Assembly: GCA_036881905.1 (NCBI GenBank) | Contig: JBAJNN010000003.1 | Coordinates: 27,448 to 91,447 of the forward strand | Direction: 5' to 3' | DNA: 64,000 nt | From: Hyphomicrobiales bacterium | Lineage (GTDB): Bacteria > Pseudomonadota > Alphaproteobacteria > Rhizobiales > Im1 | In this document: positions 32,284-56,508 of the stretch, piece by piece | Numbering within the stretch: position 1 is the first letter of the stretch | How the letters are laid out: each line of letters begins with the position of its first letter | Notes under the pieces: model-generated | Seen by the model: the letters and a program-made list of their open reading frames with translations, nothing else | Told to the model about the DNA's origin: nothing | Databases searched by the model: none | Made by a program: the position numbers and the translations under genes

Positions 32284-32292
32284 ATCCTCAAT

Positions 32293-32399
32293 TTAGAGCG
32301 GATTGCGTTCAGATTGAATCGCAATACCGCTCTAACATTCTATTTTATAAGCATAATCTTGATCGTCCTTGGCTCTCTCCGGATCGGATTATGCTTTAG
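32293..32399 (+). repeat. Bipartite palindromic intergenic repeat, copy B
   Basis: TAGAGCGG...GATTGAATCG...CCGCTCTA followed by GCATAATCTTGATCGTCC...GGATTATGC. It has the same orientation as copy A and sits immediately upstream of the maeB start. Confidence 0.8.
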
Positions 32400-32639
32400 T
32401 GTTTCGTCTGGATGCAGACCCGTTCGCTTTGTCCAAACGGAGGGTGCGGGAAACAGCTCCATGATCGGGCGGTTTATCGGTGCAAGCCGCCATGGCCACG
32501 ATGACGACATTACCCCTTACATCATAGCGTAATCGGGCCTGGCGACAAACTTATATGTTGAAACTGTGCAGCGCCCATTTTATAATGACCGCATTCCTGT
32601 TTTCCCACCAGAAAAATCGATCCGAAAGGCCTCCCCAAT

Positions 32640-45972: not shown

Positions 45973-46863
45973 ATGTTTTTATCCAGCTTATTCATGAGGG
46001 CCACTAGGATTGCAGATGGGGCAGGGAAGGGCGAGGCTTGGCGCTACTGCCTCGATCTGGTGCGCAAAACCGATAAGGACCGCTTCCTGTCGGCCCTGTT
46101 TGCTCCGGACCAACACCGCATGCCGCTTCTGGCGCTTTATGCCTTCAATGTCGAGACGGCGCGTATATGCGAACATATCAGCGAGCCGATGCTGGGAGAA
46201 ATTCGGCTGGAATGGTGGCATGGCGAGGTGGCCGGGCTTTTTGCCGGCCGGGTTGGCGATCACCCGGTTCTGCGCGCGCTCTCTGGCCCGGCGATGAGCG
46301 GAAGACTGTCGCGGCGAGGGCTGGAGACTCTGCTGCAAGCCCGCCGTTTCGACCTCTATGATGATTCTATGCCGACAGTTGATGATCTTGAGAGCTACCT
46401 TGACAAGACATCGTCGTCGCTGATTGAAATGGCCTGCTCCATTCTTGCCGGAGAGGGTGGGGCGACGGCCGCGCGAGCAGCCGGCGTTGCCTACGGTCTT
46501 GTCGGGCTGATGCGGGCTTTGCCGATCCATAACCGGCATGGACAATGTTACATACCAGCCGATCTGCTCAAAATGCACGCGATGACCCGCGCCGACATTG
46601 TCTCCGGCCTGTGGAGCAGGCCCTATGGCGAGGTCCTGGCAACGCTGCGCCGCATCGTGCGCGATCGGCTGTCACAAGCGCGGATGTATGCACAAAACCT
46701 GCCGCCCCGCCTGCTACCGGCGTTTCTACCGGTCAGTCTGGTTGATCTTTATCTCAAACAGTTGGAAAGCGCGGTAGCGCAATCTGTAAAACAGACAGGC
46801 GATGTGTCGCAACTGCGAAAACAGTGGCGGTTATGGTCTTGTGCATTACGTGAAAGATTTTAA
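45973..46863 (+). CDS. Phytoene/squalene-synthase-family protein (NDUFAF6-like)
   Basis: ...YCLDLVRKTDKDRFLSALFAPDQHRMPLLALYAFNVETARI...; the position downstream of secDF is common in Rhizobiales. Confidence 0.65.
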   Translation: MFLSSLFMRATRIADGAGKGEAWRYCLDLVRKTDKDRFLSALFAPDQHRMPLLALYAFNVETARICEHISEPMLGEIRLEWWHGEVAGLFAGRVGDHPVLRALSGPAMSGRLSRRGLETLLQARRFDLYDDSMPTVDDLESYLDKTSSSLIEMACSILAGEGGATAARAAGVAYGLVGLMRALPIHNRHGQCYIPADLLKMHAMTRADIVSGLWSRPYGEVLATLRRIVRDRLSQARMYAQNLPPRLLPAFLPVSLVDLYLKQLESAVAQSVKQTGDVSQLRKQWRLWSCALRERF

Positions 46864-47542
46864 AATCGCGCGAGGGTGGCATCTTCGGTCTGAAAAACAG
46901 CTTTTCAGACTGCCTCCACAGGCACTATCGCGTTCGGCGGCTTCGCGTGAGGGAACCAGACGGCGCAACAGTCCGAATGGAGCGAGCGGAACGAAAGCGA
47001 CGCTCAGTTTCACGTAAAAATCGCCGCCGGCCCAACCTGTCCAAATCGGTGCATCAATGTTAAACCAACCAAGGGAATAGGTGGTCGTCTCAAGGTCGGT
47101 ACCGGCGAAAGCCAAGGTAAAAAACCAGACAGTGTCGATCAATGATCCGAGTATGGATGATGCCAAAGGCCCCTCCATTTTTCGTGTCCGAGGCGATCGA
47201 ATATGAAAACGTCAAGCAGCTTAAGCGATCGAGAAAGTACCGGCCGAGGCGAATGCGATGCGCATTGTGGCCAGGATCGTTGATAAAATTGCCGCCGGCG
47301 CGAACCCGGCATAAACCATATAACGCGCAATAGCCGGTCCACAGCGGCGATTGGTCAGATCGGTGACGAAAAGGCCGGCGGATAGGTGAACGCTCCCCAG
47401 GTTAGCCGGTTTTCAAGCCCAAAGGGTTCAAACCGGTATTGCACCGGAATATTCGAGGTGATGACCACGATGGCCATGGCGCCGATCGCAACCATGGAAA
47501 GGACTTTACCAGGTATCGAAGCACCTGTTTTCTACGTCTCAT
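46846..47542 (-). pseudogene. yhhQ: Queuosine-precursor transporter (YhhQ/DUF165 family) disrupted by 3-4 frameshifts
   Basis: Homology to E. coli YhhQ is spread over different frames. The fragments are [15 protein letters not shown]; MVAIGAMAIVVITSNIPVQYRFEPFGLENRLTWGAFTYPP; LFVTDLTNRRCGPAIARYMVYAGF...SAGTFSIA; LLDVFIFDRLGHEKWRG; and PLASSILGSLIDTVWFFTLAFAG... The total span of ~232 codons matches family length. The ATG at 47542 overlaps the rpmB stop (ATGA). Confidence 0.65.
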
Positions 47543-47844
47543 GGTCTGTCTGGAGAAGAATTGGCGATGACACTCTTGTGAATACGGCGTTTGAGGCGGC
47601 GCGCTTTTAGGGATAAGGTCTGCTCGCGGGCCTTGACCAGAAAGGCATCGAGCCCGCCGCAATGCTCCACATCTCTTAAGGCCTTGGCGCTGATGCGGAA
47701 ACGATAAGATTGCCCGATGGCATCGCTCACAAGGTGCACATTGGACAAATTGGGCAGAAAACGGCGGCGCGTCCTGTTATTCGCATGGCTGACATTATTG
47801 CCTGCGAGTACGCCTTTTCCGGTCAATTCGCAACGACGGGCCAT
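47539..47844 (-). CDS. rpmB: 50S ribosomal protein L28
   Basis: [41 protein letters not shown]... Confidence 0.92.
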
Positions 47845-48003
47845 GACAATACTCCTCAATCTCCTGGTACAAGGATGTTCAGTTCCTCAAATCCTCTGCC
47901 GGTCGGCGTCGACATGAGCAACCCGACCAAGCTGAACGCACTCGCGGCCGGCAGAGAATTTTAACAGTTTACTCCTATAGGACGTGCGACCGTTATCGTC
48001 AAG

Positions 48004-48110
48004 CTAGAGCATAATCCAACCGGAGCGGAGCGAGGATCGACAAGATTATGCTTAAAAAACAATCAATTATGGTATTTTCCGTGGCAATGGAATCATGGAA
48101 AATGCCCTAG
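48004..48110 (-). repeat. Bipartite palindromic intergenic repeat, copy C (inverted relative to A/B)
   Basis: CTAGAGCATAATCC...GATCGACAAGATTATGC, then a different second palindrome GGTATTTTCC...GGAAAATGCC, ending in CCTAG. Confidence 0.75.
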
Positions 48111-48171
48111 TGCCGAATGGCGTGTCGACTTATGCGGCGTCGGCCCCGAAAATATACTAGGACTCTCGACC

Positions 48172-49035
48172 ATGACGTTTTTTTCATCGAACCATTTTTT
48201 ATCGAAGCGCCGCCTTTTTCTGTTCAGTTCCGCCCTTATCGCCATCGGGCTTTCGCAACCGGCCGCTACGGCGGAGATCGAACCCATATCCCTGGCTTAT
48301 GACGTCTCCATCAGAGGGATACGCGTTTCCACCATCGACCTTAAGATTGACCTCAAGCCACAAGGTTACGACGCTACCTTGGAAACCGACACAGTCGGGC
48401 TTGCCGGCTGGTTTTTCGACGAGGCCATCTCTTCAAGTGTGTCGGGAACCTTCATTAACGGCAACCCCCGTGCGGCACACTATCATCTGGAGGACAGCAA
48501 AGGTAGTCGAACGAAACTCATCGACGTTGATTGGTCGGGTACAGAGGTGAGGACCAGACGCTCCTACACACTTGATTCCAAGAGGGCTTCCGCCATCCGC
48601 AAAGTGTTGAAACCGGATATGTTCGATCCCATTTCGACCGTATTGCGGCATGCGCTTGAGGCGGAGAATATATCGTGCAAAGGCAAAAGGCGCATTTATG
48701 ACGGCAAGGAAGTGTTCGACCTTGAGTTCAAATTTTTGCAAGCAGACACTTTCGGTGTCGGCGATGCCGGTGTTTACCGCGGACCTTCTTTTGTTTGCCG
48801 GGTGGCATATAAGCCGGTCGCCGGGCAATCGAAGCGTAAACTGGAACGCATTGCCAAAAATCCGATACGCTACCGGGTCTGGTTTGCGCTGGTCTATGCT
48901 CAATCTCTCGGCCGTAATCTGATTTTGCCGGTCGCGGCCACCGGTAAAATCAAGGGCTATGACGCCGTCATCGTCACTCGCGCGGCCACCATCGGCGGCA
49001 AGCCGTTAAACGGGCAATCCCTGACGAAACGTTGA
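48172..49035 (+). CDS. DUF3108-domain protein (secreted, beta-rich)
   Basis: It has a signal-peptide-like N-terminus (...LFLFSSALIAIGLSQPAATAE) and a beta-strand-like composition. The rpmB-adjacent position is what I recall for Rhizobiales DUF3108. Confidence 0.5.
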   Translation: MTFFSSNHFLSKRRLFLFSSALIAIGLSQPAATAEIEPISLAYDVSIRGIRVSTIDLKIDLKPQGYDATLETDTVGLAGWFFDEAISSSVSGTFINGNPRAAHYHLEDSKGSRTKLIDVDWSGTEVRTRRSYTLDSKRASAIRKVLKPDMFDPISTVLRHALEAENISCKGKRRIYDGKEVFDLEFKFLQADTFGVGDAGVYRGPSFVCRVAYKPVAGQSKRKLERIAKNPIRYRVWFALVYAQSLGRNLILPVAATGKIKGYDAVIVTRAATIGGKPLNGQSLTKR

Positions 49036-49044
49036 TACGGCCGT

Positions 49045-50286
49045 TCACATCGGCCAGGTTCGTTCGTCTTCGGGGTTGACGATTGCGCCGTTCTGTCCAT
49101 CGGATTTCTGTTCGACAAACAGAAGACAGGCCGGAATGGCAATTCCCATGACGACCAGCCCGGTCAAGGGGAAGATCACGCTGCCGAAGCTGGCCGGGAC
49201 ATTGAATAACGCCAGAGCGAACACAAGCGGCAGCCCGGCATTGACGGCCCTGAACGCCACGGTGATCCGACCGCCCCACAACGCCGAGTCCCTGTGGCTC
49301 CGCAGCTGCCCGAAAACACCGCGGCGGATTCTGATGCGGGTCGAATTGAAGCCGAAACCGATGATGAAGGAAAAAAGGAGCGCCAATTCCGTTCCAAGCG
49401 GCCAGACGACACCCACATCGCCCACCACCACGGCGAAACAGGCCGCATAGGCGAGATATTTCCACGAGGACAGGGGGATGAAGGTCGCAATCAACGCACC
49501 CACCCCGGCGGCGGCGCTCACCAAGCCATAATCGGCCGCCGTCATGCTCTCCCGGCTTTCGTAAATAAGCGGAACGAAAAAGTTGAATCCACCGATCTGA
49601 ATGGCCAGAATGCCCATGCAGGCCGTGAGAATCCAAAGAATTTGCCTTCTGCCCTTGCTGTCTGAAGGATTCTCCGGACCATCGTCATGAGGTTGGGCGC
49701 GCGATTGGTGAGCCGCCGAGTGAAACGCATCGGCAAAAAACAGAAGCAACAGACTGGCGGCGAAACTCGCGGCAATGGCGATGAAGACATAGCGGGTGCC
49801 GAATTGGGCGATCAGCAGACCGGCCAGGGCATTGCCGGCAAAGACGCCAAGCTGAATCGCCGTTTGCGATAATCTTGAAGCCTGGTCCGCATCAAGCACT
49901 CCGGCAATGGTCAACTGCCCCATCAGGGTTTCAATGCATTGCTGGCTGATAAAGATAATAAAGGTCAGATAAGCGGCGATGATCACCAGAGACAAGAGGG
50001 TGTAGTCACTGATGGCCAGACCGGCGTAAAGCGCCGCGGGAATGCCGACAATACGGGAGAAAACGATCATCGACAGCGGTCGCCGGTCGATGGCGTTGCG
50101 CAATGGCTTGAACAGAAACTGCGCCAGAAAGGGAACGATATTCATCACGAAAAGGGTCACGCCGATCACGAAAGGCGATTGGCCGAGCCTGGCGCTGGTC
50201 CACAAAAGCCCGACCGTGACCATTCCTTCACCGAGCATGGTGACCGCCAGCAGAAAGACAAAGATGAAAATGGATTTTTTGCTCAT
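49045..50286 (-). CDS. MFS transporter (last gene of the YqcI/cupin/ATP-grasp operon)
   Basis: MSKKSIFIFVFLLAVTMLGEGMVTVGLLW..., 413 aa, about 12 TM-like segments. The ATG at 50286 overlaps the ATP-grasp stop (ATGA). The upstream part of the listed 492-aa ORF is Arg-rich and non-membrane. Confidence 0.7.
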   Translation of the reverse strand: MSKKSIFIFVFLLAVTMLGEGMVTVGLLWTSARLGQSPFVIGVTLFVMNIVPFLAQFLFKPLRNAIDRRPLSMIVFSRIVGIPAALYAGLAISDYTLLSLVIIAAYLTFIIFISQQCIETLMGQLTIAGVLDADQASRLSQTAIQLGVFAGNALAGLLIAQFGTRYVFIAIAASFAASLLLLFFADAFHSAAHQSRAQPHDDGPENPSDSKGRRQILWILTACMGILAIQIGGFNFFVPLIYESRESMTAADYGLVSAAAGVGALIATFIPLSSWKYLAYAACFAVVVGDVGVVWPLGTELALLFSFIIGFGFNSTRIRIRRGVFGQLRSHRDSALWGGRITVAFRAVNAGLPLVFALALFNVPASFGSVIFPLTGLVVMGIAIPACLLFVEQKSDGQNGAIVNPEDERTWPM

Positions 50287-51560
50287 CGCTTCATGTCCTC
50301 CATCGTGAATATGAGGTTTTGTCGTTCGAGGTCCCGAATCCGTGCAATGTCGGTTTCGACAATTGCCGGATTGTCGTGAGACAATTCGATCATGGCCGGG
50401 CAGGTGACAAGATCGACGGTTTCGGCGATGGCTTCTCCTCGCCTGACAAGCCAGCACGCTTTCACAAAAGAAGGCAGCGACTCGATAACTTTTCGGCCTG
50501 GAATATCCGACAGAAGGCCGCAACGCTCATTGCCAAGAAAACACACCGATGCCGCGCGGATTTTTCTGATGGTAAGCGGATCGCGCCCGCGCTGTCGCGA
50601 GGGGAGAGAGGCGTCGATCAACGCATCAAGGAAAGACGGCTGAATATTGGAATCGATCACGCAAGCCCCGATACCGCCATGGGCGCGGGCGGCGATTTCA
50701 ACCAGCAAAGGCCCGCTCGCAGTCAGCATGATTTCCGCGTGAACCGCTCCAACCTCGATGTCAACCGCCCTTGCCACCGTCTCGCAATAGGCAATGATTC
50801 TCGGGTCGATGGCCGGATCATTGGGAGCGTGGAAGTCGATCCGGTCATAGATCATCGCCCCCTCGCGATCGAGCTTGCGATACCGACCCACGGCGAAGAC
50901 CGTCAGCCCCGCCGCGGACATGATCCCGTCCACCGTGTGTTCAACGCCGCGCATGAATTCCTGGACCAGAACCCCGCCGGTGTTGTTGGCGTATTTATCG
51001 CCATGTTCAAGAATGAAGGCGGCATGTCGTTCGAGACAACGCCGATCATGGCAAATGCGAACCAGATCGCTTCCCGAACTGGCTTCCGGCTTGACTACGA
51101 CCGGAAATCCCACCTTTTCGGCCCATGCCAGGCAAGCGCGAACCGAATCGCAGCGCCTCTGCGCGCAAATTTCGATTCCGTTTGCCTGAACCACCGCCAT
51201 CATCCGGGTCTTGTTGCGGCGTTTGTCGGTGGTTTTTGGATCGTTGCCGGGCAGGCCGAAGCGTGAAGCCAGCTCTTCGGCGAGGCGAACGCCGCTTTCA
51301 GCCCCGGGAATAACGGCATTCAGACCGACCCGGTCGAGTTTGGCAATGAAATCGGGATCGGTTTGACGATAGATGGCCGGAAAGACACTCTCGGTTCCTT
51401 CAAAATCGCGGGTGAAGATCGCCACGCAATCGGCATTCCTCTCCATCAGGCGTTTGGCGATGAAGGCACCGGCGGAGTTAGGATCGACGACGCCGACCGC
51501 CAGCCCGGACAAATCGCGGCCATCCAACGACCGGGGCGGAGAGGGAGAGTGTCGCGTCAT
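50283..51560 (-). CDS. ATP-grasp domain protein (amino-acid/carboxylate-amine ligase-like)
   Basis: ...GFPVVVKPEASSGSDLVRICHD..., ...GGVLVQEFMRGVEHTVDGI..., ...GAVHAEIMLTASGPLLVEIAARAHGG... give the canonical ATP-grasp motif order. Confidence 0.7.
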   Translation of the reverse strand: MTRHSPSPPRSLDGRDLSGLAVGVVDPNSAGAFIAKRLMERNADCVAIFTRDFEGTESVFPAIYRQTDPDFIAKLDRVGLNAVIPGAESGVRLAEELASRFGLPGNDPKTTDKRRNKTRMMAVVQANGIEICAQRRCDSVRACLAWAEKVGFPVVVKPEASSGSDLVRICHDRRCLERHAAFILEHGDKYANNTGGVLVQEFMRGVEHTVDGIMSAAGLTVFAVGRYRKLDREGAMIYDRIDFHAPNDPAIDPRIIAYCETVARAVDIEVGAVHAEIMLTASGPLLVEIAARAHGGIGACVIDSNIQPSFLDALIDASLPSRQRGRDPLTIRKIRAASVCFLGNERCGLLSDIPGRKVIESLPSFVKACWLVRRGEAIAETVDLVTCPAMIELSHDNPAIVETDIARIRDLERQNLIFTMEDMKR

Positions 51561-51566
51561 GGCCTG

Positions 51567-51884
51567 TCACCGCGCGCCAATGGGAAGGTCGCGAAAGGCA
51601 ATGATATAGATGGCGCCTTGCGATCCCGCCGTCGATTTGTGCAATGCGTCGGCCGAAAGGCGCAAAACATCGCCCGGACCACAGCGATGATCGCCCCCTT
51701 CAAGCGAAAACGTCATTTCACCTTCCAGGACGATCAGCGTTTCCGCATTGGCGTGGTGGTGCCAGTCATGGACTTTCCCGGGCGCATCGCGTTGAATCTC
51801 GACGCAACCCTGCTCGGGGAGCATCCCGATGATGCGGTCGATGGAGGAAAAACCGATAGCGGCGTTTTTGACGATCTCGGTCAT
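51567..51884 (-). CDS. Cupin-domain protein
   Basis: ...GKVHDWHHHANAETLIVLEGEMTFSLEGGDHRCGPGDVLRLSADALHKS... matches cupin motifs 1 and 2. The ATG at 51884 overlaps the upstream stop (ATGA). Confidence 0.65.
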   Translation of the reverse strand: MTEIVKNAAIGFSSIDRIIGMLPEQGCVEIQRDAPGKVHDWHHHANAETLIVLEGEMTFSLEGGDHRCGPGDVLRLSADALHKSTAGSQGAIYIIAFRDLPIGAR

Positions 51885-52567
51885 GGTGTCGCCCACTCTC
51901 CATGATGATGATTCGCGCGGTTCGTCTCGAACAGTGTGCGAAACGGACAAGCGGTCCGCTCATTGTCGTCACCGAGGAAATATTGTTGATATTCATAAAC
52001 ACCGGGGGCGCCGTATTTGCCAAGAGAAGGCGACACCGGCACCAAATCATAAGGGGCCAGCCGTTTCCGGACCGTGGAAAATGCCTGCTCGGCCGCCTTG
52101 TCGGTGCCCAGAATCTTATCGAACACCCATCGCGGCTGAAACGTCACCATAAAACAACTGGACCGCCGGCTCTGCCGCAACAGATGCGCGGGCGTGTTGC
52201 AAATGACGAAGACGGGTTCCCCGGCGAAGCTGAACTCCCACAGCGGATCGCAGAGCTCGACGGGGATATGATCCGGCCACGGGCGGTTGTCTTGCCGAAC
52301 AAGCTCACGCAGCAGGGACCAGAATTTCTTGCGATAAACATCGAGAGGCAGGATCGCGTCCGGCTTGGTGAACAAAACCAGGGAGGTATTGGGGCCGAAG
52401 GATCGCGCTTGGCTTAGAAACGCGCCGAGGGAGACCGCCAGCGAGCGAACATCGACACTGTCATGAAAGACATAGCGCAACTGGTCGCCTTTGTAACCCC
52501 GGACCCCGAAAATACACGGGAACGGGCGCTCCACGCTCCCCATCAACGAGGAAAACTCCGAAAACAC
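51881..52567 (-). CDS. YqcI/YcgG-family protein (DcsA-like; putative heme-dependent N-hydroxylase family)
   Basis: ...ERPFPCIFGVRGYKGDQLRYVF..., ...PLWEFSFAGEPVFVICNTPAH..RQSRRSSCFMVTFQPRWVF..., ...VRKRLAPYD... match my memory of PF08892. The start is uncertain: GTG 52567 or ATG 52543. A further 24 family-like codons (..GEGTWQRI) are open upstream but contain no canonical start codon. Confidence 0.6.
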   Translation of the reverse strand: MFSEFSSLMGSVERPFPCIFGVRGYKGDQLRYVFHDSVDVRSLAVSLGAFLSQARSFGPNTSLVLFTKPDAILPLDVYRKKFWSLLRELVRQDNRPWPDHIPVELCDPLWEFSFAGEPVFVICNTPAHLLRQSRRSSCFMVTFQPRWVFDKILGTDKAAEQAFSTVRKRLAPYDLVPVSPSLGKYGAPGVYEYQQYFLGDDNERTACPFRTLFETNRANHHHGEWATP

Positions 52568-52648
52568 AATTCGCTGCCATGTCCCTTCGCCATGGCGACG
52601 TTCGATATCGCAACGGGCCAGAATGCGCGGCTCACTGAATTACCTTCC

Positions 52649-53201
52649 CTAGCGAATTACCATTAAGAACACCGTAGCATTATAAAATCCTTCAAACAAG
52701 CGTCTCGAAAACTGCATGGCGATCATACCGAGCACGGCGCCAAGGTCGGCGGCGGCAATGTCAGGGCCGATTATGAAACCGCGTTGCCCACGGCGTGCCG
52801 CCAGGGTCACGTAAGCCATGAAGAGCGAGAAAACCATGGCAAGCGCTCAGCACCCGGGCCAATAATGATGCGGCAAGAACAGCCACCGTCGTGAAAATCG
52901 CCATATAGGAAAAATAATCGCGTAACAGTAGAGCAAACTGCCGGCGTGAAAACCGAAGGCGCCATGATGCCGCTGGACAACGAGGCGCGCGCCGCTTTCC
53001 CAATCGGATGTGACGGCCATGAAGGGTCATATGAACATGGCCAGCATAAAGCTCGGAGAAATTGACCAACCGATTCTTGGGAAAGCTGTATCCCGGATCG
53101 ACGACAAGAAAGAGCGCCAGAACGGCTGACGTCTGGGAAAGCGTCGAGAAAATGAAAGGAGCCAGCAGAATCAGCCGGAATTGCGCGCCGTTATCGCTCA
53201 T
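52649..53201 (-). pseudogene. Hypothetical membrane protein, apparently split by a frameshift (ORFs 52761..53201 and 52649..52837)
   Basis: Two overlapping minus-strand ORFs each carry TM-like segments (LILLAPFIFSTLSQTSAVLALFLVV; YMAIFTTVAVLAASLLARVL; MVFSLFMAYVTLAA; LGAVLGMIAM). No family was recognised. Confidence 0.25.
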
Positions 53202-53249
53202 GCCAATATCGCCCGTTGGGCCATTCGCCTCACATCACCACCTGAGAAT

Positions 53250-53357
53250 CTAGAGTATAATCCGACCAAAGCGCGAGCGAGGATCGACAAGATTACGCGG
53301 TCGAAATCAAGAGTTAAGGGTGCCGACTCGATTCAATCAAATCGAACGGTGCTCTAG
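53250..53357 (-). repeat. Bipartite palindromic intergenic repeat, copy D (same orientation as C; closest to the reverse complement of A)
   Basis: CTAGAGTATAATCCGACC...GATCGACAAGATTACGC...CGATTCAATCAAATCGAACGGTGCTCTAG aligns almost end to end with the reverse complement of copy A. Confidence 0.8.
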
Positions 53358-53469
53358 GTGGCAGCGTTCGGCCCGTTGTGTCTTCTTGAAGCATGAATGG
53401 CATTGGTCTTGAGCAACTTAACCCGATACGCAGTCACCACTTTGCGATGGGAAAGACAATGACTTACTC

Positions 53470-53826
53470 TCATATCCTCTCATTTTTTGGCGGCAATTGT
53501 AGTCTGACTGGCCCCAACTGGCAACCGTAAATGACAGGCCTGGCTTCACCAGGGCCTTTGACGGAAACAGTCACCGTCGCCGCCGGTTCCGCCTTGCCGG
53601 TAATCGTCGCGGTGGTGTCGGAAATCGTCGCGCCGTCATCTGGCTCTATAACACTGTTATCCTCCGCCAACCCAATATCCCTCGGGGCTGGTCGCTCCTC
53701 TCCTCTCGCGCAAGACGACCCACCGCTATCCAAATCATTGCCGGGCAAATCCGTCTCCCGTGACCCGGTTTGCGCGGTGACGGCGCTGCCGACGACCGTG
53801 CCGGCAAGGAATGGTGATGGTATCAC
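53470..53826 (-). pseudogene. Remnant of a bacterial Ig-like-repeat (large adhesin-type) protein
   Basis: ...DDGATISDTTATITGKAEPAATVTVSVKG... looks like a single Ig-like repeat unit. The ORF is only 118 aa, with no signal sequence or further repeats. Confidence 0.25.
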
Positions 53827-54327
53827 CGGCCCGCCGCTTCGGCATGCGGATCACCGCTATGGAGTTGGCCGCCGCGCGGGACCCCTTACCATCTTCCCTG
53901 AGATGACGATAGTTGCGAAAAGCGCGCCTTGCTCCAGGTGAATTCCGCGAGTCCAGATGTCCGTGCGGTTCATAAGGGAGCTACCCTATGGGCCGTTCAG
54001 GCCCGTTGTTTCTAAATTCCGTAGCCTCTACTCTGAAAATACGCCTCCCATGATGGCGCAACCTTAGGGGGCGTCTCTCGATTCAAGATTTTCCTAATCC
54101 TTGCCAAGCGACGGATTCTGTCTGGGCGTATTAGGTGGAAAACGTCCGTGAGATTTGCTTTTGTTACAACTTTGATGGTCGTTCCCTCCCCAGCCCAAGG
54201 CGGAGACCCCGTCTTGCGAAATGCGATTCGAGGCGACGCCTGGAGAATCCTGACGCCGTAAATAAGTCGTGATACGGGGCGCGCGAAGCTGGTATGGTGG
54301 TCAGGTCTTGAATCTTCTTGCGGGAGA

Positions 54328-55011
54328 ATGATTATGGTTGAAACCAGCTTTTGCGACATGGCCTGGCAGGCCACCGCCGACAATTACGCCAAAATCCTCA
54401 ACCTGCCTTTCATTCGGGAATTGGCTGAAGGTACGCTCGATGCCGCTCGGTTCCGCTTTTATGTGATTCAGGACTGGCTTTATTTGGAAGAATTCGCCCG
54501 CGCATTATCGATTGCGGCGGCCAGAGCACCGGACGCGGAAGCCATGGATGTGTTCGGCAAATCCGCCCAGGGCGCCATCCTGGTCGAGCGCAGCCTTCAT
54601 GGCGGTTTTTTTAAACGGTTTGGCGTGAACCGAAAGGAAATGGCGCAGGCACGGCCGACGCCGACCTGCCATGGCTACAGCAATTTTCTTCTGGCGCTGG
54701 CATGTCGGTCCTCTTATGGCCAACTGATCGCCGGTCTTTTGCCCTGCTTTTGGATTTACCAGGCGGTCGGCGGCCACATTGCCGCGCAGGCTGGGCCCGA
54801 CAACCCTTACGATGCCTGGATCGAAACCTACTCCGATCCCGATTTCGCCGCGTCAACAGATGCAGTCAAAGCCATCGTCGATCGCGTGGCCGCGCTGGAG
54901 AGCAGGGCCGAGCGTGACGTAATGCTGGCCGCCTACAAATATGCGGTGCGGTTTGAATGGATGTTTTGGGACAGCGCCTATCGTTTTGAGGATTGGCCCA
55001 TCACGCTCTGA
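54328..55011 (+). CDS. tenA: TenA-family aminopyrimidine aminohydrolase (thiaminase II)
   Basis: ...PFIRELAEGTLDAARFRFYVIQDWLYLEEFARAL..., ...LPCFWIYQAVG..., ...YAVRFEWMFWDSAY.... The start is 54328, 54334 or 54358. Confidence 0.8.
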   Translation: MIMVETSFCDMAWQATADNYAKILNLPFIRELAEGTLDAARFRFYVIQDWLYLEEFARALSIAAARAPDAEAMDVFGKSAQGAILVERSLHGGFFKRFGVNRKEMAQARPTPTCHGYSNFLLALACRSSYGQLIAGLLPCFWIYQAVGGHIAAQAGPDNPYDAWIETYSDPDFAASTDAVKAIVDRVAALESRAERDVMLAAYKYAVRFEWMFWDSAYRFEDWPITL

Positions 55012-55058
55012 AAGCGCTAAAGTCGGCGGTTGAGGGCAATTCAACAAAAGCAAGCCGC

Positions 55059-55595
55059 CTAGCATGGCGTCACGGAGGACGGGGCTACGGATGGCGGGGT
55101 TGAGTGTGACGACGTCTCGCGGCAGCTTCTGCATCGGCCATAAATTTCCACAACGCGGTGTCTTGTTCGAAAGCCGCGATTCCCGGTTGCGCGTCGAAGC
55201 GAGGTCAGAACGTCCGGCGCCGGGAACTCGGTGACGCTGCTGCACTCATCGCAAATCATGAACATCGTATCCCGGCCGTGGCAATGGTCTTGTTTGCACG
55301 CCACAAAGGCTTTCTTGCCTTCCAACCTGTGGATCAGCTCATGTTCGCGGAGAAAATCAAGGATGCGGTAAATGACGATCGGCGCCGGGCGGCGACCATT
55401 GAGGGCGCCCATATGCTCGATAATGTCATAGGCCCCGACCGCCTTTTGACCCGATGCGATGATACTCAATATTTCACGGCGCAATTGGGTCAGACGAACG
55501 CCCGACCGGACGCATTTTCGCTCCGCCCGCCGCAAAATCTCCCTCAAAGCGTCGGTTTGATCGCTCCGCGATGTGACCGATTCGGGTTGGTTCAT
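55059..55595 (-). CDS. Fur-family metalloregulator (Zur-like)
   Basis: ...RLTQLRREILSIIASGQKAVGAYDIIEHM....IVIYRILDFLREHELIHRLEGKKAFVACKQDHCHG..MFMICDECSSVTEF...CRSC gives a winged helix plus CxxC metal sites. Confidence 0.7.
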   Translation of the reverse strand: MNQPESVTSRSDQTDALREILRRAERKCVRSGVRLTQLRREILSIIASGQKAVGAYDIIEHMGALNGRRPAPIVIYRILDFLREHELIHRLEGKKAFVACKQDHCHGRDTMFMICDECSSVTEFPAPDVLTSLRRATGNRGFRTRHRVVEIYGRCRSCRETSSHSTPPSVAPSSVTPC

Positions 55596-55776
55596 GATCT
55601 TACGAGACTCCCGACAAGCAGCCTTTTCATCGAAATCTGTCGCTTAGTCTGCCATATTGGTAGGGAAAATACAAGGAACCTGAAGATCGTAAACGAAGTC
55701 CGCGCGGCGGTCGGGTCCGGTGCGTGTTCCAGCAATATTGGCCCAAGAACTGAAGACCTAGCGCAACCGAGAGTTA

Positions 55777-56508
55777 CTACGGCCATGACGAGACCATTCG
55801 GCGGGCGGAGTGCAAATCGGCTGGTGTATCGACCTCACACCAGTCATGCCCGTCGATGGCGCAGCTTGCCACTTCGGTGCTTTCGGCGATCGTGGCAACC
55901 GCGGAAGGGAACCACAGGCTTAGTCCCGAACCGTCGCGCATGGTGCGTTCAAGAACATCGCGATAAAGCCCCGCCCCGTCTTCGCCGAATCGGTAGAGAC
56001 CGATCGCTTCAGCATCGACGCTGTCTGATGGCAGGGTCTTGCCGATCCGCACGATACACCCCCCTTTGAGCATGACTTTCATATCGTCATTGTCATAGTG
56101 TTCTTTGTGGTTTATCGCCACACGGATAGGGGCCGACGGGCAGGACAGAAAATGTCTGACCAGCTCCGCGCGAAATATCGTATCGCCATTCACCTGGATA
56201 AAACCGGTTTTCATCTCATGACGCGCCATCCAGCAACTGGCCAAATTATCCACCACCCTATAGAACGGGTTGAAGATGGTTCGAATTTCGACCGACAAGT
56301 CACGCGCGAGCCTGCCCAGCATCTCCTCCACCAGTTCGGTGCCATAACCGGTTATGACGACGAATTCTTCAATGCCGCATGCCGCGAAGGCGTCGATCTG
56401 CCGGGCGATCAGCGCGCGCGCGCCTATTTTCAGCAGTGCCTTGGGAAGAGCGTTAGTCAATGGCAAAAGCCGCTTGCCTTGGCCCGCGGCGAGGATCAAA
56501 ACCTTCAT
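55777..56508 (-). CDS. Nucleotidyltransferase (NTP-transferase family; sugar-phosphate or phospho-alcohol cytidylyl/uridylyl-transferase-like)
   Basis: MKVLILAAGQGKRLLPLTNALPKALLKIGARALI... is the canonical GxGxRL...PK signature. Confidence 0.7.
   Translation of the reverse strand: MKVLILAAGQGKRLLPLTNALPKALLKIGARALIARQIDAFAACGIEEFVVITGYGTELVEEMLGRLARDLSVEIRTIFNPFYRVVDNLASCWMARHEMKTGFIQVNGDTIFRAELVRHFLSCPSAPIRVAINHKEHYDNDDMKVMLKGGCIVRIGKTLPSDSVDAEAIGLYRFGEDGAGLYRDVLERTMRDGSGLSLWFPSAVATIAESTEVASCAIDGHDWCEVDTPADLHSARRMVSSWP

Follow-up and report, generated by a model that had tools for sequence, protein, structure and literature searches.

A conserved YqcI–cupin cassette, putatively biosynthetic, in alpha- and betaproteobacteria and its probably inactivated copy in a Hyphomicrobiales genome

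We analysed a 64,000-nt stretch (hereafter, the window) of contig JBAJNN010000003.1 (positions 27,448 to 91,447, forward strand) from a Hyphomicrobiales metagenome-assembled genome (MAG; GCA_036881905.1). Its minus strand carries four adjacent genes for a YqcI/YcgG-family protein, a cupin, an ATP-grasp ligase and a transporter of the major facilitator superfamily (MFS). The reading that we favour, with moderate confidence, is that the locus represents one copy of a conserved accessory biosynthetic cassette for N-hydroxylation by YqcI, a cupin-catalysed step, ligation and export, and that this particular copy has probably been inactivated recently. The four genes, annotated by the submitters as MEG9883379 to MEG9883376, are the following:

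51881..52639, minus strand: YqcI/YcgG reading frame (heme-thiolate guanidine N-hydroxylase family), 252 codons and stop; PF08892, 215.1 bits
51567..51884, minus strand: putative metal-binding cupin of 105 aa, dedicated to YqcI; Cupin_2, 41.2 bits
50283..51560, minus strand: ATP-grasp protein of the L-amino-acid-ligase type, 425 aa; ATP-grasp_4, 42.5 bits
49045..50286, minus strand: MFS transporter of 413 aa, presumed exporter; MFS_1, 43.6 bits; about 11-12 predicted transmembrane segments

Both the listing of open reading frames (ORFs) and direct reading of the sequence place the genes where the first-pass annotation of this DNA had put them, and its domain assignments hold, all four scores lying above their cut-offs (27 for PF08892 YqcI_YcgG, of which profile positions 7-211 of 211 are covered; 27.2 for Cupin_2, PF07883; 27 for ATP-grasp_4; 33.4 for MFS_1). 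The translational coupling it had described was likewise found: the YqcI stop and the cupin start overlap in ATGA at 51884-51881, the cupin stop TGA (51569-51567) is followed by a 6-nt gap (51566-51561) and the ATP-grasp ATG at 51560, and a second ATGA at 50286-50283 joins the ATP-grasp stop to the MFS start. No Rfam match indicative of a riboswitch or RNA leader was obtained at E<=0.1 across 46000-56000.

The set had been regarded as an orphan, which was not borne out, as more than 400 species-level genomes possess the YqcI–cupin core. When one genome was scanned for each species, 402 loci encoding a relative were obtained, and the subfamily is especially common in Bradyrhizobium; the best 80 and four other loci were analysed further (n=84). 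The cupin orthologue directly follows YqcI in all 80 species-representative genomes and in 84 of the 84 loci, with an overlap of exactly 4 nt in 77 of them, usually the ATGA of the window. The first-pass annotation had made conservation of the set as a unit a point to be checked, and the set does recur in alphaproteobacteria, betaproteobacteria and metagenomes. Four genomic contexts can be distinguished (contigs are designated L and a number):

Context A, about 75 of 84 loci (Bradyrhizobium, Bordetella, Gluconacetobacter and others): divergent DJ-1/AraC regulator, 236-aa protein, MFS, YqcI, cupin
Context B, Neorhizobium, Rhizobium UBA8348, Allorhizobium undicola and Verminephrobacter eiseniae: YqcI, cupin, regulator on the other strand, ATP-grasp, MFS-like protein
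Context C, the window, L087 and L086: four genes contiguous, no regulator
Context D, Hoeflea and Lichenihabitans: YqcI, cupin, then an APC amino-acid permease

The regulator of contexts A and B is of the same kind (DJ-1/AraC, FtrA/GbdR-like), and tblastn of the 1.7 kb that precede YqcI in the window matched no decayed version of it. The MFS protein of the Bradyrhizobium type differs from that of the window. The ATP-grasp and MFS proteins of Neorhizobium and Verminephrobacter are 51-57% identical to those of the window (ATP-grasp about 53-54%, MFS 55-57%), and orthologues of both adjoin YqcI–cupin on several metagenome contigs as well; L086 has a contiguous, window-like YqcI–cupin–ATP-grasp arrangement. 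The ligase orthologue was never seen apart from YqcI–cupin or its remnants, a statement that excludes L090, whose contig stops just upstream of the regulator; in a plasmid collection, no ligase orthologue was found, the best match being 33% identical. By sequence, then, the YqcI–cupin core is usually joined by a transporter and a candidate amide-forming enzyme.

The 236-aa protein (e.g., L003 5975-6682) always lies between the DJ-1/AraC regulator and the MFS–YqcI–cupin operon, in about 75 loci. It matches no Pfam or NCBIfam family, and a profile search of the PDB gave nothing at E<=10. Its structural model (mean predicted local distance difference test score, pLDDT, 70.5) retrieved only GNAT acetyltransferases in Foldseek, and one member in UniRef is named N-acetyltransferase domain protein; judging from the model, it appears to be an undescribed GNAT subfamily.

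The APC permease genes of context D are located at L022 8780-10315 and L079 8914-10290. Near the YqcI–cupin pair of Hoeflea and Lichenihabitans no ligase or GNAT-like gene was detected; the ORFs upstream of YqcI in both genera belong to no family, have no GNAT-like similarity and are probably not genes. In Verminephrobacter eiseniae, an N-acetylglutamate-synthase-like gene with AA_kinase and acetyltransferase domains (L089 6373-7719) lies directly upstream on the opposite strand; from its domains we take it to be an arginine-biosynthesis gene, the placement of which may be coincidental.

The cupin deserves special attention, as it is the invariant partner of YqcI. At His39, His42, His44, Glu48 and His82, and at several further positions, at least 95% of 81 unique orthologues have the same residue, and these five are invariant in a 15-sequence subset. 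Both cupin motifs, with the His/His/Glu...His ligands, are present, and this conservation points to a catalytic His/His/Glu/His metal site. When 1.84 billion representative proteins were searched exhaustively with the cupin, only 34 cluster representatives matched at E<=1e-10. All ten long matches that were tested (nine of them at E<=2e-9) proved to be fusions with YqcI as the N-terminal and the cupin as the C-terminal part, so at least ten protein clusters are natural fusions with a domain order equal to the gene order. A word-index search had returned six close matches only; the fusions emerged from the exhaustive one. His42, His44, Glu48 and His82 are kept in 11 of 11 fusion proteins examined. 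Adjacency and recurrent fusion show that the two proteins are functionally coupled, as far as gene order and domain architecture can tell, and do not indicate which reaction the cupin performs.

A further fusion, P0089 (359 aa, L088 3464-4543), is encoded on a conjugative-like contig with a relaxase, a NikA-like protein and a TraG/TrwB coupling protein. Around it, no ligase or MFS gene was found in L088, and its neighbours match no known family.

For YqcI itself, the first-pass annotation had named DcsA and GntA as the only characterised members of the family. Six have in fact been described, namely DcsA, GntA, AglA/AlpD, ChmN, AmbT and Mhr24, and all are guanidine N-hydroxylases (PMC12866846; bioRxiv 10.1101/2024.01.24.577118). 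The window protein reaches only 38.4 bits with the GntA equivalog model NF041366 (cut-off 145) and matches the AglA crystal-structure chains in the PDB at 8e-30; the published active-site residues of AglA were mapped onto it. The axial heme ligand of AglA, Cys44 of the FPC motif, corresponds to Cys42 in the window protein, and the two arginines at the heme propionates, Arg166 and Arg200, to Arg158 and Arg191; Cys42 and Arg158 are invariant and Arg191 is nearly invariant in 14 homologues. The phenylalanines that sandwich the side chain (AglA Phe152 and Phe182; here Phe144 and Phe173) and the residues that orient the arginine side chain (AglA Gln177, Arg179 and Gln228; here Gln168, Arg170 and Gln219) are all conserved. 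The phosphonate-binding lysines are both replaced, Lys196 by Phe187 and Lys225 by Glu216, the latter invariant in the 14-sequence alignment (A1). In AglA, K225E and substitutions at Lys196 enable hydroxylation of free L-arginine; in K225E the alpha-amino group is held by the new glutamate, and N-delta-hydroxyarginine is formed (PMC12866846). Because the subfamily has a glutamate at the position of Lys225, we infer that its substrate would be a free guanidino amino acid, most simply L-arginine.

The ATP-grasp protein is of the L-amino-acid-ligase type by sequence, but is an orthologue of no characterised ligase. All its PDB matches are L-amino acid ligases (30vh, 1e-39; BL00235, 7e-13; RizA, 2e-10), and the best named model is that of the dapdiamide synthase DdaF (142.8 bits, 1.3e-41, cut-off 840). 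It reaches 255 bits for the PRK07206 subfamily (cut-off 302) and 16 bits for BacD (cut-off 850), and it falls far below the cut-offs of all named equivalogs, PylC and others included; the Verminephrobacter orthologue has a weak LAL_C2 match. L-amino acid ligases are anabolic enzymes that consume ATP and are characteristic of pathways to dipeptide antimetabolites (bacilysin, rhizocticin, dapdiamide and tabtoxin, for example), and in the known pathways they couple a carrier amino acid to a toxic non-proteinogenic one. The MFS protein has 11 hydrophobic segments in a simple hydropathy scan, in keeping with its family; its sole named subfamily match is TIGR00900 'H+ antiporter protein' (24 bits, far below the cut-off), and it would work as an exporter.

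The ligase bears directly on a D-cycloserine-like route, which the first-pass annotation had drawn as a parallel. YqcI would then act like DcsA, with N-omega-hydroxyarginine as the source of hydroxyurea, and the ATP-grasp protein would close the ring like DcsG. A YqcI protein, an ATP-grasp protein and an exporter are common to both systems, but no arginase-like DcsB and no equivalents of DcsC, DcsD and DcsE were found in or beside the cassette, the ATP-grasp protein is a 425-aa L-amino-acid-ligase type, and the invariant partner here is a cupin. We know of no cupin partner in the dcs or gnt pathways. The ligase matches in the PDB and to DdaF favour ligation over a DcsG-like cyclisation, and we regard the D-cycloserine-like route as very improbable; closer parallels are offered by argolaphos (AlpC with AlpD/AglA) and by the YqcI protein and SznF homologue of graminine and chalkophomycin biosynthesis.

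The state of yqcI in the window is a separate matter. The first-pass annotation had considered the N-terminus unclear, with 24 family-like codons open upstream of GTG 52567 and no canonical start. The absence of a canonical start in frame was confirmed, the 252-codon frame being bounded upstream by TAA 52642-52640, and the cause can now be traced to a 1-nt deletion at codon 5. The upstream codons are real: homologues of about 251 aa align to 97-98% of the extended 252-codon frame, so these 24 codons were once coding. The window was aligned with two Tara Oceans contigs, L085 and L087, of about 86% DNA identity. From its GTG, L085 reads GCG TTT CTG in frame into MSRAFLNRSDV..., the family N-terminus, and in L087 both this start codon and the triple T are retained. 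At 52623-52622 the window has lost one of these Ts, reading GCA-TT-CTG, and translation from GTG 52635 runs out of frame for 30 codons to TGA 52545-52543. The features of this region are:

52679..52708, minus strand: putative promoter-like TCGAGA-18-TATAAT, a consensus scan match only (10/12), about 44 nt upstream of the ancestral start
52643..52648, minus strand: Shine-Dalgarno-like GGAAGG, read from the sequence, 7 nt before GTG 52635; GGGAGG in L085
52633..52635, minus strand: ancestral YqcI GTG start, now out of frame with the gene body; same GTG in L085 and L087
52622..52623, minus strand: site of the 1-nt deletion causing the codon-5 frameshift; TT in the window versus TTT in L085 and L087 (DNA alignments)
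52543..52635, minus strand: frameshifted 30-codon leader ORF, the TGA of which (52545-52543) overlaps the in-frame ATG 52543-52541 (TGATG)

The block around the promoter-like element is conserved in L085. Compared with L085 and L087, the window thus has no intact full-length YqcI coding sequence, and the residual products that can be formed start at GTG 52567 (228 aa) or at ATG 52543 (220 aa); the latter corresponds to P0001, as called in the Logan assembly. Reinitiation at ATG 52543, through the TGATG overlap, may produce it. Non-canonical in-frame starts (ATT, CTG, ATC) were ruled out as too far from the ribosome-binding site, and programmed frameshifting in yqcI was ruled out for want of a slippery heptamer.

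In the AlphaFold model of the window protein (mean pLDDT 66.7; 75-92 for the first 30 residues), helices are predicted at 9-15 and 21-34, ahead of the FPC motif (residues 40-42). The heme in crystallised AglA is held by a three-helix face of which helix alpha1 is part. Going by the model, the 220- and 228-aa products would be devoid of all or most of the helices preceding the heme-binding Cys. The 228-aa form loses the conserved Trp21, the 220-aa form Trp21 and the invariant Phe26 and Glu28.

Related contigs carry lesions of their own. In L087, YqcI has lost 16 nt at one place and 1 nt at another, while cupin, ligase and MFS are intact; in L085, homology is lost after residue ~177, at an in-frame stop; in L091 (5435-7182), a deletion fuses YqcI residue ~149 to ATP-grasp residue ~28 and the cupin is gone. 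The MFS gene of L090 (1787-2952) is seemingly frameshifted. The ratios of non-synonymous to synonymous substitution rates (dN/dS) between the window and L087 are 0.19 for YqcI, 0.245 for the cupin, 0.20 for the ligase and 0.155 for the MFS protein, which shows that all four genes were under purifying selection for most of the divergence and that the lesions are recent.

A still functional operon is the alternative here. The missing T would be an assembly or consensus error, or else initiation at GTG 52567 or reinitiation at TGATG would yield a truncated but active N-hydroxylase. The leader GTG is well placed behind GGAAGG and its TGA overlaps ATG 52543 in a manner suited to reinitiation; the dN/dS of YqcI shows no relaxation, the three downstream genes are intact, and NCBI annotates a 228-aa protein with no pseudogene label. 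Weighing on the other side, the MAG contig and the independent Logan assembly (L001) are 100% identical across 13,782 nt, agreeing base for base, though they possibly share reads, and a TT/TTT run is no homopolymer of the error-prone kind. Different lesions, in YqcI or removing part of it, are found in three related contigs, which argues for real, repeated loss, and the truncated forms would be without conserved residues and without part or all of the predicted helix 21-34 beside the heme ligand. We consider an operon that still functions unlikely. Since the loss of one T at codon 5 leaves only products of 220-228 aa, the window copy of YqcI has probably been inactivated recently and lost its function, as probably have the copies in the related marine contigs. 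The window set is thus probably a fresh pseudogene cluster, in which annotation pipelines currently call the damaged YqcI as a normal protein of 220 or 228 aa.

For the cassette in its intact form, we propose the following pathway. YqcI would N-hydroxylate free L-arginine, or a guanidino amino acid much like it, at the guanidino group, with electrons supplied by a housekeeping ferredoxin and reductase. The cupin would oxidatively convert the hydroxyguanidine, the closest precedent being the cupin domain of SznF, GrbD and ChmM. The ATP-grasp ligase would couple the modified amino acid to a second amino acid, and the MFS protein would export the dipeptide. The most likely product, judged from gene content and analogy, would be a small N-oxygenated arginine-derived dipeptide. 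The compact route of N-oxygenation, cupin chemistry, ATP-dependent ligation or cyclisation and export, as put forward in the first-pass annotation, is consistent with this, save that ring closure has become the less favoured use of the ATP-grasp enzyme.

A number of points weigh against this interpretation as a whole. None of the cassette's members has a known product, substrate or activity, and the cluster encodes no redox partner. The cupin profile finds a bacterial quercetin 2,3-dioxygenase first in the PDB (2.4e-12), with the SznF cupin at E = 2e-3 (21 bits) behind more than 30 unrelated small cupins; its metal ligands align with those of SznF as they would for any cupin. With such a generic score, the cupin is not of the SznF family by sequence, and the second step may have other outcomes, among them oxidative C-N cleavage, release of NO or nitrite, and isomerisation. 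Hydroxylation may come before or after ligation in the cassette; AglA acts on the ligated compound. Regarding the window copy, the dN/dS of YqcI is as low as that of its neighbours, so inactivation, if real, was very recent, and a sequencing error could conceivably account for the TT run. Finally, the divergent regulator in most genomes is of the DJ-1/AraC type (FtrA/GbdR-like), a class that often controls catabolism, and in context D the MFS protein is replaced by an APC amino-acid permease, which would also fit uptake.

The last two points lead to another, non-biosynthetic explanation: the cassette would be induced to take up, break down or detoxify a guanidino compound or a toxic analogue of arginine from outside. 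The transporter would bring this compound in or pump it out, YqcI and the cupin would oxidise it, and acylation (GNAT) or ligation would neutralise it. Besides the regulator in most versions and the permease in two genera, presence in very many Bradyrhizobium species-level genomes speaks for a core trait rather than a sporadic antibiotic cluster, and no self-resistance gene is evident. This has to be set against the anabolic nature of L-amino acid ligases, the complete lack of a regulator in the window version, and the fact that the only named match of the window MFS protein, weak as it is, is to an H+ antiporter. All six characterised YqcI enzymes are, moreover, biosynthetic (PMC12866846). 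On balance, uptake or detoxification seems rather improbable to us, and export of a biosynthetic product remains the preferred reading.

A bolder version of the biosynthetic reading can be formulated, to which we assign a low probability. YqcI and the mini-cupin, separate or fused, would constitute a minimal heme-based counterpart of SznF: YqcI would add two hydroxyl groups to the guanidine of free arginine, which the cupin would then rearrange with formation of an N-N bond. The resulting amino acid, an N-nitroso or diazeniumdiolate compound like graminine, would be ligated in the ATP-grasp versions or acetylated in the GNAT versions (most Bradyrhizobium), and exported. If this were true, hundreds of plant-associated proteobacteria would possess an unrecognised pathway, independent of nonribosomal peptide synthetases (NRPS), to a small metal-binding or NO-releasing metabolite.

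The history of the locus was reconstructed from its neighbourhood. Upstream of YqcI lies a TenA/THI-4 family gene (54328-55011, plus strand) that is also present in L085; as the TenA–YqcI neighbourhood is common to both, the cassette already occupied this site in their common ancestor. L085 lacks about 1 kb that separates TenA from the YqcI promoter in the window (52750-53900). The ORFs of this stretch are short and belong to no Pfam family, with a sub-threshold Big_6 (bacterial Ig) fragment at 53473-53826, and the segment looks like decayed, non-coding or inserted DNA. A gene for a Fur-family regulator (55059-55595, minus strand) is located near TenA, just upstream of the cassette.

A palindromic intergenic element of about 120-160 nt, with nested inverted repeats CTAGAGCAT...AAGCATAATC...GATTATGCT...ATGCTCTAG, occurs in three copies (47960-48120, 53210-53370 and 32290-32440). 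The 20-nt exact repeat AATCTTGTCGATCCTCGCTC at 53275-53294 and 48028-48047 (0 expected in shuffles) forms the core of two same-strand copies that bracket the four-gene cassette and a DUF3108 gene; the latter follows the MFS gene, with the copy at 47960-48120 beyond it. The element may mark mobility of the block or may be an ordinary element resembling repetitive extragenic palindromes or miniature inverted-repeat transposable elements (REP/MITE-like). No long repeats or insertion sequences flanking the locus were found, only the short palindromic element. The first-pass annotation had taken a nearby repeat and decayed genes as consistent with an acquired locus; the repeat is real, but compositional signs of horizontal transfer are absent, the G+C content of 0.55-0.59 being the same as in the flanks, and the TenA–YqcI neighbourhood is common to L085.

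YqcI/YcgG proteins are a recently recognised class of thiolate-heme N-oxygenases, with only six members characterised. This work defines a large subfamily always paired with, and sometimes fused to, a dedicated cupin, and occurring in interchangeable ligase, GNAT-fold and permease versions. It offers a place to start looking for new guanidine N-O chemistry, and possibly N-N chemistry as well, in bacteria associated with plants. In the literature that we searched, no description of a system of YqcI and a small cupin was found.

Among known systems, the argolaphos cluster of Streptomyces monomycini offers one close parallel, as the gene of the ATP-grasp amide ligase AlpC adjoins that of the YqcI arginine N-hydroxylase AlpD/AglA (PMC8976061), which makes the ligation step well precedented. 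AglA hydroxylates the guanidino group of the ligated Arg-aminomethylphosphonate, and crystal structures exist (PMC12866846); its heme-binding and arginine-side-chain residues are all kept in the window protein. In contrast, the cassette has no phosphonate genes, Phe and Glu take the place of the phosphonate-binding Lys pair, and AglA comes from an actinomycete and has no cupin partner, whereas the window belongs to a proteobacterium.

The second parallel lies in gramibactin and chalkophomycin, where YqcI proteins (GrbE, ChmN) are teamed with SznF-like proteins (GrbD, ChmM), the cupin domain of which has been proposed to form the N-N bond of graminine; ChmN converts free L-Arg to N-delta-hydroxy- and N-delta,N-omega-dihydroxy-arginine (bioRxiv 10.1101/2024.01.24.577118). 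By analogy, a heme-containing YqcI would in the cassette, too, supply N-hydroxylated arginine to a cupin partner, and the YqcI–cupin fusions repeat the order of N-oxygenase and then cupin domain seen in SznF. Unlike the SznF homologues, the cassette cupin is a stand-alone protein of 105 aa with no degenerate HDO domain, and its ligands are His/His/Glu/His versus three conserved His in SznF. The cassette has, in place of an NRPS or polyketide synthase, an ATP-grasp ligase or a GNAT-fold protein.

With DdaF, RizA/RhiM, BacD and BL00235 the ligase shares the ATP-grasp architecture and a size of about 420 aa, although it scores far below the equivalog cut-offs of DdaF and BacD. DcsA/DcsG and GntA represent the same YqcI/YcgG family and the theme of guanidine N-hydroxylation, but no other dcs or gnt genes lie near the cassette. 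Overall, the cassette unites the ATP-grasp ligase partner that YqcI has in argolaphos with the cupin partner that it has in graminine, both of them known themes; what is new is their compact, NRPS-free combination with a cupin subfamily dedicated to YqcI.

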